Positions 1 through 24,771 of a stretch of 64,000 bases of DNA are shown here, one piece after another. How positions within the stretch are numbered: position 1 is the stretch's first letter; each line of letters starts with the position of its first letter. The stretch lies in the NCBI RefSeq assembly GCF_046105845.1, contig NZ_CP151004.1. One strand, 5' to 3'. The notes under the pieces were generated by a model, which ran no database searches, was not told where the DNA came from, and saw only the letters and a program-made list of their open reading frames with translations. This DNA is from Escherichia coli. Lineage in GTDB: Bacteria; Pseudomonadota; Gammaproteobacteria; Enterobacterales; Enterobacteriaceae. A program made the position numbers and the translations under genes.

Positions 1-205
1 TGTACACAGATGGTGCAATATGTTTGAAAAGATCGGAGTCTATGGGTTAGTTTTTATAGCAAACGTTGTTCTCAACGGCGCTAAAAAACAGACACATTAA
101 AAATGTGGGTAATTATTTTAAAAGAAAATCATATATTAAATAATAATACGAGATATGTTTTCATATTTAGTGTACTGTATACGGCCATTTATACAGGAAA
201 AGCCT

Positions 206-376
206 ATGTCAGAACGTAAAGACTCAAAATCACGCCGTAATTATCTCGTTAAATGTTCCTGCCCAAACTGCACCCAAGAGTCAGAACACAGTTTTTCAAG
301 AGTACAAAAAGGTGCCCTTTTGATCTGCCCTCATTGCAACAAAGTATTCCAGACAAATCTTAAAGCTGTAGCTTGA
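206..376 (+). CDS. Small zinc-ribbon protein (56 aa, two CxxC pairs), prophage moron of the YnfQ/YmcF kind
   Basis: ATG at 206 is preceded by AGGAAAA. Sequence is MSERKDSKSRRNYLVKCSCPNCTQ...ICPHCNKVF. It lies next to cspB as in Qin-type prophages. The family name is from memory only. Confidence 0.4.
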   Translation: MSERKDSKSRRNYLVKCSCPNCTQESEHSFSRVQKGALLICPHCNKVFQTNLKAVA

Positions 377-739
377 TTGATTTTATTCGTAACAAGTATT
401 TTTTATATTTTAATAACATATTTAAAGCAGATAATAAAAAACCCGCCTGAGCGGGTTTAATATTGTGGTACTTTTTGTGGGAGTCATCCACTTACGCACT
501 TTGTTTTGCTATGCCAGCAGTTAGCTTCTGCTGTAAAACTATTCATGCAGCAAACCTGCACTTCACCACAATGGTTAGCATACTTTTCCTGATTAAGTTA
601 TTGCCAAATATGCTGGCCATTGTTTCATGTATTGGACCTCCTTACTATTTATTAAAGAGATCCAATATTCACCACTCTGTCTGTATCTCCACTCAGGCAT
701 CAGCCTTCTTCGTTATCGTATACAGACAAACTATGAATT

Positions 740-955
740 TTAATCAGTAATTATGACATTTGCTGCTGCAGGACCTTTAGCACCACTCTCTACAGAGAAG
801 GTAACCTTTTGACCTTCAAATAAGGTTCGAAAATTATCATTCTGAATCGCAGAAAAATGCACAAACACATCTTTACTACCATCAACAGGAGAAATAAAGC
901 CAAAACCTTTATCAGCGTTAAACCATTTTACTAAACCAGTCATTTTATTTGACAT
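740..955 (-). CDS. cspB: Cold-shock protein CspB
   Basis: 71-aa [41 protein letters not shown]... with RNP1/RNP2 motifs KGFGFI and VFVHF. It matches my memory of E. coli CspB almost residue for residue. Confidence 0.9.
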
Positions 956-1255
956 TCTACATTCCTTAACTTGAGCCTTTCGGCATAAATGGCTTGTATA
1001 ACAGAAACGACTTCGTACTTAATTGGAGAGACTCAAAGAAGGAATAAGTGAATAACACCTGAAATGAGAACTGCTTTAGTAAACTACTTCGTATATCGTC
1101 TGTTCTTCAAACCGACGCAATCATTAACGCATAGTTGAACATATGAAGCAATGTTTATTTTAGACATCCAGCCATCTTCAACCCCATCAAAAAACTATAG
1201 CTTTCTTCAGGAACGTGTGTATAGTGCGCCCAGTTATCAGTATTAAGGAATTTTT

Positions 1256-1468
1256 TTGTCCCGTAAAATGACAGGAATTGTCAAAACCTTTGACGGCAAA
1301 AGCGGCAAGGGTCTTATCACCCCATCCGATGGTCGTATCGATGTCCAGCTTCATGTTTCAGCGCTCAATCTCCGCGATGCAGAAGAAATTACCACCGGAT
1401 TACGCGTGGAATTTTGCCGGATAAATGGTCTGCGTGGCCCTTCAGCTGCCAATGTTTACCTTTCATGA
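1256..1468 (+). CDS. cspF: CspF/CspH-type cold-shock-domain paralog
   Basis: 70 aa, [26 protein letters not shown]...[22 protein letters not shown] start lies 7 nt after AAGGA. It is divergent from cspB as in Qin. Confidence 0.8.
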
Positions 1469-1751
1469 GCTATATTAAAGCTTTAATTTCAGGCCCCATC
1501 GAATCAAACATGGAGAGTTTTCATGAATAACCCCGTCTGTCTTGATGACTGGTTGATTGGCTTTAAAAGCTTATGCTGTACTTTGACCGTAATAGCTCTG
1601 CTAATAATGTAATATGCAGACTCATTGTATCTAGGGACATAGTACTGGAAGAAAACATTTTAAACATCAGGCAAAGTCACCCGATAAATAATAAGTAAAC
1701 AAACATGAATCCCGGAATGAGATTCAACATCTCTATTACCCTATTTAAAGC

Positions 1752-4463: not shown

Positions 4464-4853
4464 TCAGGCGGCTGCACCCGCCGTTTTCTCGTACTTACTG
4501 ATAGTGATCTCGACCTTCCCTTCCGGGATAACCGGTCCCCACTCCACCAGCATTCTTTTCACCTGACTGTCGTCTTCCCACACACCCGCGTGGGTCAGGG
4601 CGTCAAACAGCGCCTTGTTATAGTTGTCCAGATCGCGGATCCGGTTATCCGGAGGAAACAACACGATCTCCACTGAAGCAGGTGCCGACGTTGGTTTTGG
4701 CAGACGACGTAACTGCTCAAATATTGCTGCACACGCCGCGCTCTGGAATTTGCGCCCCGCCGCGCTTATCAGGCTCTTACCAGCAAACGCCCCTTTGTTG
4801 GGGTGTCGCCAGTACGTGTTCACGCTGGGCGGGAAAGGCAGGATCAGCTTCAT
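4464..4853 (-). CDS. rusA: RusA-family Holliday junction resolvase
   Basis: 129 aa, MKLILPFPPSVNTYWRH...RDLDNYNKALFDALTHAGVWEDDSQV (RusA signature). ATGA overlap with the upstream gene. Confidence 0.85.
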   Translation of the reverse strand: MKLILPFPPSVNTYWRHPNKGAFAGKSLISAAGRKFQSAACAAIFEQLRRLPKPTSAPASVEIVLFPPDNRIRDLDNYNKALFDALTHAGVWEDDSQVKRMLVEWGPVIPEGKVEITISKYEKTAGAAA

Positions 4854-5176
4854 ACTTTCAGGCCCCTCTCATGTAACCAGTGGGCTGCACGCAGTCTGGC
4901 GTTTTCCTCACCGGCAAGCAGTGCGCGGATAATCCCGGCTGCCTCGCTGTCGTCGTCCTTCACTGTGGTATGAAGCGTGATACCCCGGGCCACGCCACGC
5001 TTTATCGTGATGACGCCTTTTTTCTCCAGTGCGCGAAGATGCTCCACCGCTGCATTCACCGAACGGTATCCCAGCATGGCTGCCACCTCCTGATTGGTTG
5101 GCGGGAAACCACGTTCTTTCTGATAAGAAATCAGCATATCCAGCACCTGCTGCTGGCATTGAGTTAACGTCGTCAT
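4850..5176 (-). CDS. LexA N-terminal DNA-binding-domain-only protein (108 aa)
   Basis: From ATG 5176 (TAATG overlap with the upstream stop): MTTLTQCQQQVLDMLISYQKERGFPPTNQEVAAMLGYRSVNAAVEHLRALEKKGVITIKRGVARGITL. This parallels the LexA winged HTH. No Ala-Gly cleavage site or S24 Ser/Lys domain follows. Confidence 0.7.
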   Translation of the reverse strand: MTTLTQCQQQVLDMLISYQKERGFPPTNQEVAAMLGYRSVNAAVEHLRALEKKGVITIKRGVARGITLHTTVKDDDSEAAGIIRALLAGEENARLRAAHWLHERGLKV

Positions 5177-5664
5177 TAAGCCCACACGTAATTCCCTGAC
5201 AGATACCACTCATCACCCGATACAGCGCGCTTGCTGCTTTTCCGTAAGCACCGCTCACGGCGCGCCAGAAAATTGTTTCGTTCTGACTGGGAGTGGCTTT
5301 CACGGAATGCCGCCATCCACACGGTTGCAGCACGACGGTATAAGCCCCTGGACTCCAGTTCTTCAGCCTGGCGGGTCAGGCACAAAATTACCCGGGGATC
5401 GTTAGTGCCGACATAGAAATTGCGCACAGGTCTGGTTTCACGAACTGGTTGTGGTTCCGGCTCCTGCGCTCTCTCAGTCAGGCGCGGGAAATGTCTGCGT
5501 GTATTTCCTTCACAACGGTGAGCCACACGCCCACTCTGACGTAACTTGCTTGCTGACTGCAGAACGCGCTGCCGTGAGTAACCTGCAAAAGCATCTGCAA
5601 TGTCTCCGGAAGTACACCCCGGATGGGCTTCAATGAATTTCTGAACTTCATTCAAAAGACTCAT
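5176..5664 (-). CDS. Phage protein with PerC-like C-terminal segment
   Basis: 162 aa. LESRGLYRRAATVWMAAFRESHSQSERNNFLARRERCL resembles the PerC/Pch activator motif (memory). The N-terminus looks like a winged HTH. Confidence 0.45.
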   Translation of the reverse strand: MSLLNEVQKFIEAHPGCTSGDIADAFAGYSRQRVLQSASKLRQSGRVAHRCEGNTRRHFPRLTERAQEPEPQPVRETRPVRNFYVGTNDPRVILCLTRQAEELESRGLYRRAATVWMAAFRESHSQSERNNFLARRERCLRKSSKRAVSGDEWYLSGNYVWA

Positions 5665-5666
5665 GA

Positions 5667-6485
5667 TTACCCCCTGAATCCTGCCGGGATCTGGCTGTAG
5701 TCCACGTTGTCGTAACTGGCTTTGAAGTACGGGTCCTCGCGTCTGGCTGCAGATACCGCAGGAACTTCCCAGGATTCTTCGAAATGACGATCCGGACCAA
5801 AGAACGTGACAGCCTGTTTCACAAATTGTGTGCCGCTGTTACCCATCGCAGATACCCAGCCCGCGTAGCGTTTCACACCTTCCAGCATGGTTTCGGGTTT
5901 TACCCCCTCATTCAAACGGGCTTTCCAGGCTTTGAAGGCTGCAGATTTTGAATTGCCACCAGCACGTTTGGGGTATGCCAGCCATGCCTGCTCAAACTCC
6001 GGAGAGTATTCCGGTCGGTTTGAACGAACTCGCACAGACTCATCAGCAGATGCACCAACAGCTATTGGTTCATTGACTGGTTCTTTGACTGGTTCAAAAG
6101 AGTGACTGGTTCTGGGTGAATCTCCTGCACCACCCCCTGGTGCAACTCCTGCACTACCTGGTGAATTTGCTGCACCAGATAGTGAATTATTTGCACTACC
6201 CCCTAGTGAATCTCCTGCACCATCAAGATGAAGGAGATAGATATTACTTGAGTTACCTTTTTCACCTTTCCGGGTGACTTTTTTTACCAGCCCGGAATCA
6301 CAAAGGGCCGCAATATGATTCATCACAGAACGTTTGCTAATCTCGCACTGGTCAGCAATATGCTGGTAGCTGGGCCAGCACTCACCCTGATCGCTGGCAT
6401 TATCAGCCAGCTTGATCAGAACCAGTTTTCGCAATGGATTACCCACTCGAATTTTCATCGCTTTAACCATCAGCTCCATACTCAT
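5667..6485 (-). CDS. Replication initiator (O-like): N-terminal wHTH, repeat linker, DnaT-like C-terminus
   Basis: Start ATG 6485 (GGAGGT SD, ATGA overlap with the upstream ORF). It has an HTH segment ...SYQHIADQCEISKRSVMNHIAALCDSGLV, an internal iteron array, and ends ...SQIPAGFRG like host DnaT (...SQIPPGFRG). Confidence 0.7.
   Translation of the reverse strand: MSMELMVKAMKIRVGNPLRKLVLIKLADNASDQGECWPSYQHIADQCEISKRSVMNHIAALCDSGLVKKVTRKGEKGNSSNIYLLHLDGAGDSLGGSANNSLSGAANSPGSAGVAPGGGAGDSPRTSHSFEPVKEPVNEPIAVGASADESVRVRSNRPEYSPEFEQAWLAYPKRAGGNSKSAAFKAWKARLNEGVKPETMLEGVKRYAGWVSAMGNSGTQFVKQAVTFFGPDRHFEESWEVPAVSAARREDPYFKASYDNVDYSQIPAGFRG
6115..6224. repeat. Five 20-nt iterons (spacing 24-21-21-24 bp) inside the O-like gene: candidate phage ori
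   Basis: GGTGAATCTCCTGCACCACC (6115), GGTGCAACTCCTGCACTACC (6139), GGTGAATTTGCTGCACCAGA (6160), AGTGAATTATTTGCACTACC (6181), AGTGAATCTCCTGCACCATC (6205). They are flanked by three TGACTGGTTC repeats (6074, 6086, 6103) and an AT-rich stretch (6225-6290). Confidence 0.65.
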
Positions 6486-6718
6486 GCTGCACCTCCGAGA
6501 TGCTTCATGTTTTTTCCGGAGCAAAAGGCTATAAGCGGCATACTGATGCGGTAATTACGGCCCAGCGGTTCACAAATCACCTTCTGACATTCACGGTCAA
6601 CCAGGCTAACACGTAGAACATGCCCTGCAGGCGTGGTGTACCACTGCCCAACTGTAGGAATTGATGTTTTTTTACGCTGAAGCAAACGGCAAATATTGAG
6701 GATCAACGGATTAAGCAT
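6482..6718 (-). CDS. Hypothetical phage protein (78 aa), translationally coupled
   Basis: The ORF overlaps both neighbours: 8 nt with the upstream gene, and ATGA with the O-like start. I recognise no motif. Confidence 0.45.
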   Translation of the reverse strand: MLNPLILNICRLLQRKKTSIPTVGQWYTTPAGHVLRVSLVDRECQKVICEPLGRNYRISMPLIAFCSGKNMKHLGGAA

Positions 6719-7547
6719 GACGATGCCCTCCGCTGATATTCAGGAGACGGTGAATATGAAAATTAGCCTTATCCGCCAGACGAATACGTTCAGCCTGCAA
6801 GTTAAGAAGGGTTTCTACCAAAACCTGATGCGCCTGCGGATCCGAAAGAGTTACCTTGCGCAGAGCACGTAGTGCAGTTGTTACATAACTGAGTTTATGT
6901 AAGTCTTCATCATTCAGACGAGTGAGGGCTGGGACAGTAGCCATGATGGCAGCCTCCGATAACAGTGAATTACCTTCACCACCGGAAACGCCAATTTCGC
7001 TGGTGGTGAACTGAACGGGGTTGGCGTAACCGGCGTTATCGGAAACCGGCGCACCTTTCGGTGCCCCCGTCCAGCCCACCATAATTTGGGTGTGCACAGA
7101 CACAGACGATAAAAAAGACGCTGGCGCGTCATATATCGCCGATAACATTTCCAGGACGCCAATCCCGTCACCCGCTTTATAAGGTGCCTGAACAGTGTAA
7201 CGTCCCGGAATGGCAGAATCAATGTGCTGGTGGTCCTTCACACTCAACAAAATCACGCCTGAATTTCCACAAAGGACTAAAGCACTCATGCGGGTAGTCT
7301 TTGCGAAGATAGATAACGCGCTGTGTTTCTGGTTCCCAACGAATAACATGGACATAAAGCCCTCTTCCGTCACGAAACCAGCGGTTAAGTTCCCGCACAA
7401 CTCGCCCCCCACAGTCAGGTAAAGTTCTCTGTGGTTACTTACAGCCAGGTGATTTGGTAATCTGCATTCATGCCGTAACAACAGGTGTTCAGCGACACTG
7501 ACCACCAGCTGTTGCGACAAACGGTTATTTGCCGTTAAACTGTTCAT
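6711..7547 (-). CDS. Hypothetical phage protein (278 aa)
   Basis: ATGA overlap with the cII-like gene stop. I recognise no family. Confidence 0.6.
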   Translation of the reverse strand: MNSLTANNRLSQQLVVSVAEHLLLRHECRLPNHLAVSNHRELYLTVGGELCGNLTAGFVTEEGFMSMLFVGNQKHSALSIFAKTTRMSALVLCGNSGVILLSVKDHQHIDSAIPGRYTVQAPYKAGDGIGVLEMLSAIYDAPASFLSSVSVHTQIMVGWTGAPKGAPVSDNAGYANPVQFTTSEIGVSGGEGNSLLSEAAIMATVPALTRLNDEDLHKLSYVTTALRALRKVTLSDPQAHQVLVETLLNLQAERIRLADKANFHIHRLLNISGGHRHA

Positions 7548-23491: not shown

Positions 23492-24031
23492 ATGTCTTCC
23501 AGAGTTTTAACCCCGGACGTCGTTGGTATTGACGCCCTGGTACACGATCACCAAACCGTTCTGGCAAAAGCTGAAGGCGGTGTGGTTGCCGTATTTGCTA
23601 ACAATGCCCCGGCGTTTTATGCCGTCACGCCTGCACGCCTGGCTGAACTGCTAGCGCTGGAAGAAAAGCTGGCGCGTCCGGGAAGCGATGTCGCTCTGGA
23701 CGATCAACTCTATCAGGAACCGCAAGCTGCTCCCGTTGCTGTACCCATGGGGAAATTCGTCATGTATCCGGACTGGCAACCCGATGCCGACTTTATCCGC
23801 CTGGCGGCGCTATGGGGCGTGGCACTAAGAGAGCCGGTGACCACCGAAGAACTGGCCTCATTCATTGCCTACTGGCAGGCGGAAGGTAAAGTCTTTCACC
23901 ATGTGCAGTGGCAACAAAAACTGGCGCGCAGCCTGCAAATCGGTCGTGCCAGCAACGGCGGACTGCCGAAACGAGATGTGAATACGGTCAGTGAACCTGA
24001 CAGCCAAATTCCACCAGGATTCAGAGGGTAA
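23492..24031 (+). CDS. dnaT: Primosomal protein DnaT (179 aa)
   Basis: [21 protein letters not shown]...[13 protein letters not shown]. It is followed 2 nt later by dnaC. Confidence 0.9.
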
Positions 24032-24033
24032 CG

Positions 24034-24771
24034 ATGAAAAACGTTGGCGACCTGATGCAACGCCTGCAAAAAATGATGCCTGCCCATATCAAACCTGCTT
24101 TCAAAACGGGTGAAGAACTACTGGCCTGGCAGAAAGAACAAGGGGCGATCCGCTCCGCCGCTCTCGAACGTGAAAATCGGGCGATGAAAATGCAGCGCAC
24201 CTTTAACCGCTCCGGTATTCGTCCACTGCATCAGAACTGCTCCTTTGAGAACTATCGCGTTGAGTGTGAAGGGCAAATGAATGCGTTAAGCAAAGCGCGC
24301 CAGTATGTCGAAGAGTTTGACGGCAACATCGCCAGCTTCATCTTTTCTGGTAAGCCAGGAACCGGCAAAAACCATCTGGCGGCGGCAATCTGCAACGAGC
24401 TGCTGCTACGCGGTAAATCCGTATTGATCATCACCGTGGCCGATATTATGTCGGCGATGAAAGATACCTTCAGGAATAGCGGTACCAGCGAAGAACAACT
24501 GCTTAACGATCTGAGCAACGTTGATCTGCTGGTGATCGATGAGATCGGCGTGCAGACCGAATCGAAATACGAAAAAGTGATCATCAACCAGATCGTCGAT
24601 CGCCGCTCTTCTTCCAAACGCCCAACCGGGATGCTGACCAACAGTAATATGGAAGAGATGACCAAGTTGCTGGGCGAACGCGTGATGGACCGTATGCGCC
24701 TGGGTAATAGTTTGTGGGTGATCTTCAACTGGGATAGCTACCGTAGTCGGGTAACGGGTAAAGAGTATTAA
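24034..24771 (+). CDS. dnaC: Helicase loader DnaC
   Basis: 245 aa with Walker A GKPGTGKNHL and Walker B LLVIDEIG. Confidence 0.95.
   Translation: MKNVGDLMQRLQKMMPAHIKPAFKTGEELLAWQKEQGAIRSAALERENRAMKMQRTFNRSGIRPLHQNCSFENYRVECEGQMNALSKARQYVEEFDGNIASFIFSGKPGTGKNHLAAAICNELLLRGKSVLIITVADIMSAMKDTFRNSGTSEEQLLNDLSNVDLLVIDEIGVQTESKYEKVIINQIVDRRSSSKRPTGMLTNSNMEEMTKLLGERVMDRMRLGNSLWVIFNWDSYRSRVTGKEY

Follow-up and report, generated by a model that had tools for sequence, protein, structure and literature searches.

The replication initiator of an Escherichia coli lambdoid prophage ends in a DnaT-type peptide whose distribution follows the absence of phage helicase and P-type loader genes

The window analysed here, a 64,000-nucleotide stretch of an Escherichia coli chromosome, carries both a lambdoid prophage, integrated beside yjjG, and the host dnaT-dnaC operon (23.5-24.8 kb). 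The replication initiator of this prophage (5667..6485, minus strand; 272 amino acids from its ATG, within an open reading frame (ORF) of 285 amino acids) resembles the host primosomal protein DnaT, and this likeness is confined to a tail of about 10-20 residues that lies beyond the folded DnaT domain. The tail is a portable peptide that closes replication initiators of several architectures, and what strictly correlates with it is that the phage encodes neither a DnaB-like helicase nor a P-type loader (either is found in 0/162 of the tail-bearing viral loci listed), rather than that it has no loader at all. From these sequence comparisons we speculate, with about even confidence, that the tail binds a DnaB·DnaC-type helicase/loader complex, and that the initiator may thereby stand in for DnaT and bypass PriA, PriB and DnaT.

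Host dnaT (23492..24031, plus strand) is recognized by NCBIfam PRK02854 (primosomal protein DnaT, E=1.7e-104), carries the Pfam DnaT domain at residues 89-154 in the 179-residue numbering and is followed after 2 nucleotides by dnaC (24034..24771, plus strand). Its tail, beyond the three-helix-bundle domain, is encoded at 23987..24028 on the plus strand. When the initiator was compared with DnaT by BLASTP, the last nine residues alone aligned, with eight of nine identical (E=0.010 for the pair). The IPxGFRG peptide from the extreme C-terminus of DnaT is present in the initiator, which closes with the letters ...DYSQIPAGFRG and whose core DnaT-type motif, NVDYSQIPAGFRG, sits at its own extreme C-terminus (5670..5708, minus strand). 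In this respect the original prediction, which had set the end of the O-like protein beside that of DnaT, was right in both coordinates and sequences. It had also proposed a profile search for the C-terminal single-stranded DNA (ssDNA)-binding domain of DnaT and had made the likeness depend on a domain-level alignment. No such alignment was obtained: neither the Pfam model of the three-helix-bundle domain (PF17948) nor NCBIfam PRK02854 matched the initiator, and profile-profile comparison (hhalign) of the C-domain family of the initiator with the DnaT C-terminal domain returned a probability of 6%. Domain-level homology between the two was thus rejected. Likewise, PRK02854 and BLASTP found neither the N-terminal oligomerisation domain nor the acidic PriB-binding linker of DnaT in the initiator.

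The peptide is strongly conserved within DnaT itself. Orthologues were collected with a divergent Phaseolibacter DnaT from which the last 26 residues had been removed to avoid circularity, and all 119 full-length orthologues (119/119; median pairwise identity 61%) end in [IVT][PFL]xGFRG plus 0-2 residues. The conservation of the tail equals that of the DNA-binding-domain core, whereas the preceding 15-20 residues are variable.

Two pattern scans of viral contigs at the DNA level were used to trace the peptide beyond DnaT. The first, for QIPxGFRG followed by a stop codon, matched at least 120 contigs, and all 120 matches listed close replication-initiator ORFs, belonging to several architectures that have the tail alone in common. 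The second, for P[DE]xxIPxGFRG without the stop codon, matched at least 120 further contigs; among the 120 matches listed, 105 stop at once (about 5% would be expected to do so by chance), 14 stop within 2-5 codons and one is unrelated, so that 119/120 sit 0-5 residues from the C-terminus. The match between the initiator and DnaT tails is therefore far beyond chance. The consensus over the second set of matches reads (R-D-V-N-x-[IV]-S-x-)P-D-x-x-I-P-x-G-F-R-G. This tail is attached to five C-domains, namely the FFGPD type of the window protein, a lambda-O type (NVLSPxKLRxKW...), the true DnaT domain PF17948, a '...YQGLF' type and a Phg_2220_C-like type, and the tail-bearing initiators display about ten N-terminal regions of distinct sequence, HTH_36, DUF1376 and Phage_rep_O among them. 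When a single genome of each species was scanned, the genuine matches all came from Enterobacterales, the group having DnaT and DnaC. About 75 of them were DnaT genes, in every case with dnaC next in line, and about 35 were prophage initiators; outside this order there were about eight chance matches, either short or out of frame. The named members of divergent tail-bearing clusters are likewise Enterobacterales. A reading of the tail as a beta-clamp-binding motif (QLxLxL/F) was also considered and rejected, as the Gln is conserved neither in DnaT orthologues nor in the phage tails.

The genes that accompany the tail were counted in viral loci with at least 2.5 kb of downstream sequence, and loaders and helicases were detected with seed sequences (two DnaB-like ones and lambda P), with Pfam scans of common downstream clusters and by reading the N-termini of all ORFs of at least 300 amino acids. 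Relatives that share about 85-90% identity with the window initiator as far as ...FFGPDRHFEESW, the end of its C-terminal domain, continue with any of four or more different tails. Those with a tail other than the DnaT type have a DnaC-like gene in 20/20 and a DnaB-like gene in 20/20 cases, whereas close relatives with the DnaT-type tail have them in 0/54 and 0/54 (DnaC-like and DnaB-like genes being those counted in these two sets). Three examples of the other tails (...SDKLTF, ...GENLNF and ...LPVSGFSEQDYG..CNW) are each followed by a 292-residue IstB/DnaC-like ATPase and a DnaB_C helicase. Among the matches listed, the loci with QIPxGFRG and a stop codon (n=76) contain no DnaC-like, DnaB-like or lambda-P-like gene, and those with the canonical P[DE]xxIPxGFRG tail (n=86) contain 48 DnaC-like genes and again no DnaB-like or lambda-P-like gene; taken together, the 162 tail-bearing viral loci listed hold 48 DnaC homologues, no DnaB-like helicase and no lambda-P-like loader. 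These 48 phage homologues are full length and 43-54% identical to host DnaC, and in their modules the tail-bearing initiator precedes dnaC in the same order as in host dnaT-dnaC. Among the matches listed, a phage dnaC accompanies one identical tail, ISEPDTEIPPGFRG, in 16 cases and is missing in 14, and the dnaC(+DUF1627) segment behaves as an insertion or deletion in otherwise similar modules. Common neighbours of tail-bearing initiators other than DnaC are DUF977, DUF1627, PerC-like, RuvC-like, Dam and ParB-like proteins, while nearby ORFs of 300 amino acids or more appear from their N-terminal sequences to be DUF968 proteins, methyltransferases, a transposase and accessory genes, not helicases. 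We also observed that the alternative cassettes ...MSDKFGKSSDKLTF, ...MSDDFGESGENLNF and ...LPVSGFSEQDYG..CNW have an aromatic last residue and always occur with a gene for a 292-residue DnaC-like protein and a DnaB-like helicase gene (loci L122-L128 and L129-L143).

The prophage in the window belongs to the group without any such gene. In strain NCTC11151, which is 99.2% identical over 24 kb and in which the whole prophage is annotated from the tail fibres to the integrase, none of the annotated prophage genes is DnaC-, P- or DnaB-like, and PHROG scans of the unnamed early genes gave no loader or helicase match. Directly downstream of the initiator, where a lambdoid O-type module is expected to have its cognate loader or helicase (P, DnaC-like or DnaB-like), none is present. 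The lack of a loader gene in this prophage, as originally noted, is hence borne out. The accompanying proposal that a mimicked DnaT C-terminus replaces the phage's own loader fared less evenly: the tail is indeed statistically tied to the source of the helicase, but 48/86 of the canonical-tail loci listed do have a DnaC homologue.

The initiator itself (PHROG 270 'replication initiation protein', E=6.9e-89, with further matches to PHROGs 8540 and 391; 'replication initiation (O-like)') is annotated as a RefSeq coding sequence in NCTC11151, where it is WP_000061487, and is 97-99.6% identical to the 'replication protein' of SfV (orf39), mEp460, 2H10 and many Stx2 phages (Stx2c/Stx2a). Separate PHROG families cover its N-terminal half and residues 160-285 of the 285-residue ORF. 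An AlphaFold2 model (single chain, 147-sequence alignment) was used to delimit its parts by the predicted local distance difference test (pLDDT). Residues 1-90 (6216..6485, minus strand; pLDDT 85-97) form a winged-helix domain of the HTH_36 class (E=2.9e-11, the sole Pfam match in the protein), as is typical of lambdoid O-type initiators. All Foldseek matches of this domain are winged-helix proteins, the DnaD N-domain 2v79 among them, and it is presumed to be the origin-binding domain. A disordered linker rich in Gly, Ser, Ala and Pro follows at residues 91-156 (6018..6215, minus strand; pLDDT 29-40), and it is in this region that homologues of 250-302 amino acids differ in length. Residues 157-240 (5766..6017, minus strand; pLDDT about 95; 'YSPEFEQAW...FFGPDRHFEESW') constitute a small helical C-terminal domain with the motifs YSPEFEQAW...YPKR...FFGPDxHFxExW, for which there is no Pfam model and whose family comprises 4478 representative clusters (E<=0.001). 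The tail cassette, EVPAVSAARREDPYFKASYDNVDYSQIPAGFRG, occupies residues 241-272 (5670..5765, minus strand; pLDDT about 50), and the alternative tails of the relatives start right after FFGPDRHFEESW. Its predicted disorder is as expected for a docking peptide.

Tandem- and direct-repeat searches together with reading of the sequence further revealed, in the linker-coding DNA (6115..6219), five iteron-like units, GTGCAnnAnnTTCAC, that are imperfect dyads spaced 21-24 bp apart, followed by a 2.6-copy repeat of 12 bp (6066-6096). Lambda iterons lie inside gene O, and by analogy the iteron-like units in the initiator gene are probably the phage origin.

As the tail is found only on initiators without a phage helicase gene among the roughly 160 phage loci listed, it probably docks the host helicase-loading machinery. 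In the mechanism that we envisage, the gene would belong to a lambdoid replication module of the 'initiator-only' type and encode an origin-binding initiator, whose winged-helix N-domain would bind the iteron-like repeats in its own gene and whose last 10-20 residues, after the linker and the small helical C-domain, would act as a disordered docking peptide. The tail would contact DnaC, or DnaB, within a DnaB·DnaC-type complex, and the initiator would in this way bring the host helicase to the origin together with host DnaC, or with the phage copy of DnaC where one is present, needing neither a P-type loader nor a phage helicase. The window initiator would use host DnaB·DnaC directly and take the place of DnaT in the restart primosome. 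Should DnaT use this tail to contact DnaB/DnaC, the phage initiator would replace DnaT, and a bypass of PriA, PriB and DnaT appears more likely than their recruitment; nothing points to PriB and DnaT themselves being recruited, as had been suggested at the outset. The last residues of an initiator would then specify the helicase-loading route, a DnaT-type peptide leading to a DnaC-type loader and host DnaB, and the alternative aromatic-ended tails presumably dock the loader or helicase that the phage itself encodes. More tentatively, and with somewhat less than even confidence, we surmise that the C-terminal peptide of DnaT (...PDxxIPxGFRG) may be the dock of PriA-PriB-DnaT for DnaB·DnaC, that dnaT-dnaC may be a domesticated phage 'initiator-loader' module, and that the peptide may be traded among enterobacterial phages as a cassette which decides between the host helicase (DnaT-type tail) and a phage loader/helicase pair (other tails).

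Several points weigh against docking on DnaB·DnaC. The partner of the tail could be DnaB, DnaC, PriA, PriB, SSB or ssDNA, and a cryo-electron microscopy study of 2026 favours the N-terminal domain of DnaT as the candidate recruiter of DnaB/DnaC (PMC13377028). The literature that we found on DnaT residues 154-179 covers ssDNA binding, with a Kd that differs about 2-fold (PMC4132743), and oligomeric state (PMC5778457) alone, and our literature search found no paper giving the DnaT tail a partner. The window tail is moreover a divergent variant (VDYSQIP instead of EPDxxIP), in which the canonical match spans only the last nine residues. As to the gene counts, a seed-based detection might miss an unfamiliar loader; many loci are near-identical E. 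coli prophages that are not independent, so the counts overstate the number of independent events; and the tail and the downstream genes can travel as one recombination block, so that 20/20 versus 0/54 may represent few events. The raw counts carry less of the argument than does the diversity of architectures and neighbours.

An alternative that we regard as unlikely is that the tail is an aid to ssDNA binding or self-oligomerisation, the link with gene content being mere genetic linkage in mosaic blocks. The tail of DnaT is flexible; dT30 binding by DnaT 84-153 is about 2-3 fold weaker than that by DnaT 84-179 and also less cooperative (PMC4132743), and DnaT 1-161 forms a dimer instead of a trimer (PMC5778457), both of which agree with such a role, as does the clonality of many loci. 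The acidic E-P-D just upstream of the core would, however, be odd for DNA binding, and a tail that is found on five unrelated C-domains cannot pack against one conserved domain surface. Besides, G-F-R-G is invariant at the end of DnaT at 50-60% overall identity, which better fits a specific protein pocket.

Slightly less probable again is a version of the original proposal in which the tail binds PriA or PriB and the initiator thereby brings the entire PriA-PriB-DnaT restart pathway to the phage origin. The restriction of the tail to Enterobacterales, which have PriB and DnaT, would suit this, and the acidic residues together with I-P-x-G-F resemble peptides that bind PriA or PriB. The C-terminal domain of DnaT docks PriA via a conserved hydrophobic interface, and DnaT also contacts PriB (PMC13377028). 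Nevertheless, the PriB contact described is the acidic inter-domain linker (Asp66/Asp70) and the PriA contact is ascribed to the folded domain, neither of which is the tail; an initiator already bound to its origin has no obvious need for PriA; and the recurrent pairing of a tail-bearing initiator with dnaC (48 loci listed, in addition to dnaT-dnaC and ydaU-ydaV) points to the loader side.

A hidden loader, in which the PerC-like, the LexA DNA-binding-domain or another unnamed early protein would be an unrecognised helicase loader bound by the tail, seems improbable to us. Several early genes are without known function, and in most loader-less loci a small winged-helix gene directly follows the initiator; yet DUF977/winged-helix genes occur both with and without a phage dnaC (dnaC-DUF1627-DUF977 versus DUF977 alone), so DUF977 is not a dnaC replacement, and a loader role of the related winged-helix/PerC gene of the window was considered unlikely for the same reason. 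Furthermore, the first downstream gene varies widely (PerC-like, DUF977, RuvC-like, Dam or ParB-like), and host DnaT has the tail without any such neighbour. That the shared tail is a functionless leftover, carried along when phage replication genes recombined with dnaT-like genes, we consider highly improbable, since, for all the mosaicism of lambdoid genomes and the shortness of the tail, its C-terminal position is strict (119/120 listed), it is invariant in 119/119 DnaT orthologues next to a variable linker, and it is spread over many architectures.

The surrounding prophage is organised as follows. The integrase is encoded at about 14.1-15.4 kb and the structural genes are located beyond the left edge of the window; the early right operon runs cI-like, YdaS/Cro-like, YmfL/CII-like, Ash, a 78-residue ORF, initiator, PerC-like, LexA DNA-binding domain, RusA, KilA-N, DUF968 and Q. 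The initiator thus stands after the cro/cII-like genes and before the nin-region/Q genes, the position of a lambdoid O-type initiator. The identities first proposed for the three genes downstream of it agree with Pfam (PerC 1.1e-9, LexA DNA-binding domain 4.3e-19, RusA 8.9e-15). The gene directly downstream, at the lambda 'ren' position (5176..5664, minus strand; PHROG 1324 'transcriptional activator'), encodes a fusion of an N-terminal winged-helix part, with a weak Ren-like PHROG match, and a C-terminal PerC domain, and it is probably not a loader; small winged-helix genes of this kind (DUF977, PerC-like) recur directly after tail-bearing initiators. The next product (4850-5209, minus strand), a protein of 108-119 amino acids, consists of the LexA DNA-binding domain alone, without the autocleavage/peptidase part, and could occupy SOS boxes without being cleavable; its gene is kept between the PerC-like gene and rusA in 78/120 of the tail-bearing viral loci listed. 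Upstream, a single 278-residue ORF with an Ash domain (6711-7547, minus strand) corresponds to two RefSeq genes in NCTC11151 (Ash family and DUF4222), a discrepancy that stems either from a frameshift or from a split made in annotation. The prophage also has cold-shock and small-protein genes (cspB, cspF, cspI, ymcF, ynfN, gnsB and ynfU) in a Qin-like cluster, with the lysis genes on one side and Q on the other (window 1-1500; locus L001 21900-27000).

The initiator protein, its module and the presence of the DnaT C-domain in O-like proteins (PMC5509034) are already known. In the searchable literature we found neither the tail described as a separate exchangeable peptide of DnaT, YdaU and many initiator families, nor the strict link between this tail and the lack of a phage helicase or P-type loader, nor a tail-based hypothesis of DnaB/DnaC recruitment by DnaT. 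The handover from the E. coli restart primosome to DnaB·DnaC was described as unknown in 2026 (PMC13377028), and no contact between DnaT and DnaC is documented despite their common operon (PMC5778457). A peptide that does not vary in DnaT, and that recurs in many phage initiators with a gene content implying a DnaC-type loader and the host helicase, is a testable candidate for the recruitment of DnaB/DnaC by DnaT. If true, this would also explain how the 'initiator-only' modules work that Shiga-toxin and serotype-converting phages often carry (Eru6, SfV, mEp460), and it suggests that dnaT, like dnaC, derives from a phage replication module.

Among known systems, the Eru6 unit of Shiga-toxin phages has the same pair of genes, an Ash/Rha-family gene and then that of the HTH_36 initiator itself, which in Stx2a_WGPS2 is 97.5% identical; the study that classified the Eru units states the replication mode of Eru phages to be unknown and does not discuss the tail or its distribution (PMC8951638). 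DopC/DopE and other O-like proteins carry a DnaT_C domain (Brezellec et al. 2017, PMC5509034), and DopC/DopE resemble the window initiator in joining an HTH_36 O-like N-terminus to a DnaT-derived C-terminal sequence, an instance of parts being exchanged between DnaT and phage initiators; they differ in that they share the folded DnaT C-domain and have a P-like partner, whereas the window initiator has the tail alone and no partner gene. YdaU of the Rac prophage (E. coli K-12 MG1655) is likewise a phage replication protein ending in a DnaT-type tail (...VSLPDSAIPPGFRG), but it has a DUF1376 N-domain, another C-domain and its own DnaC homologue, YdaV, encoded 6 nucleotides later (locus L448 3620-5230), whereas the window prophage has no DnaC homologue; K-12 thus has two proteins with this tail. 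The C-terminal tip of SSB (...DDDIPF) is another short, disordered, acidic-then-hydrophobic peptide that serves as a portable protein-recruitment handle in replication. The DnaT-type tail differs from it in sequence and lacks the terminal Phe-COOH; for want of this free Phe, the idea of an SSB-tip mimic was rejected.

With DnaT and the dnaT-dnaC pair the window protein has in common the C-terminal peptide, and many phage versions keep the tail-bearing gene directly before dnaC; unlike DnaT, it has no oligomerisation domain, no acidic PriB-binding linker and no three-helix ssDNA-binding domain (PF17948), and a sequence-specific winged-helix domain presumably takes over the targeting that PriA/PriB provide for DnaT. 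The likeness to lambda O-P lies in an initiator of the early right operon, in the window presumably origin-binding too, with iteron-like repeats in the gene that encodes it and a C-terminal region that would secure host DnaB, and the lambda O C-domain is also common to one large family of tail-bearing initiators. That domain (...NVLSPAKLRDKWTQL...; locus L449 187-1086) has no Pfam model, and lambda O ends ...TNTDWIYGVDL; a scan of lambda O relatives, intended as a control set, returned 80 virtually identical copies of lambda O and added nothing. In lambda, O has another tail and is followed by P, the phage's own loader, which captures DnaB, whereas the window module has no P, carries a DnaT-type peptide at the end of its initiator and presumably relies on host DnaC.

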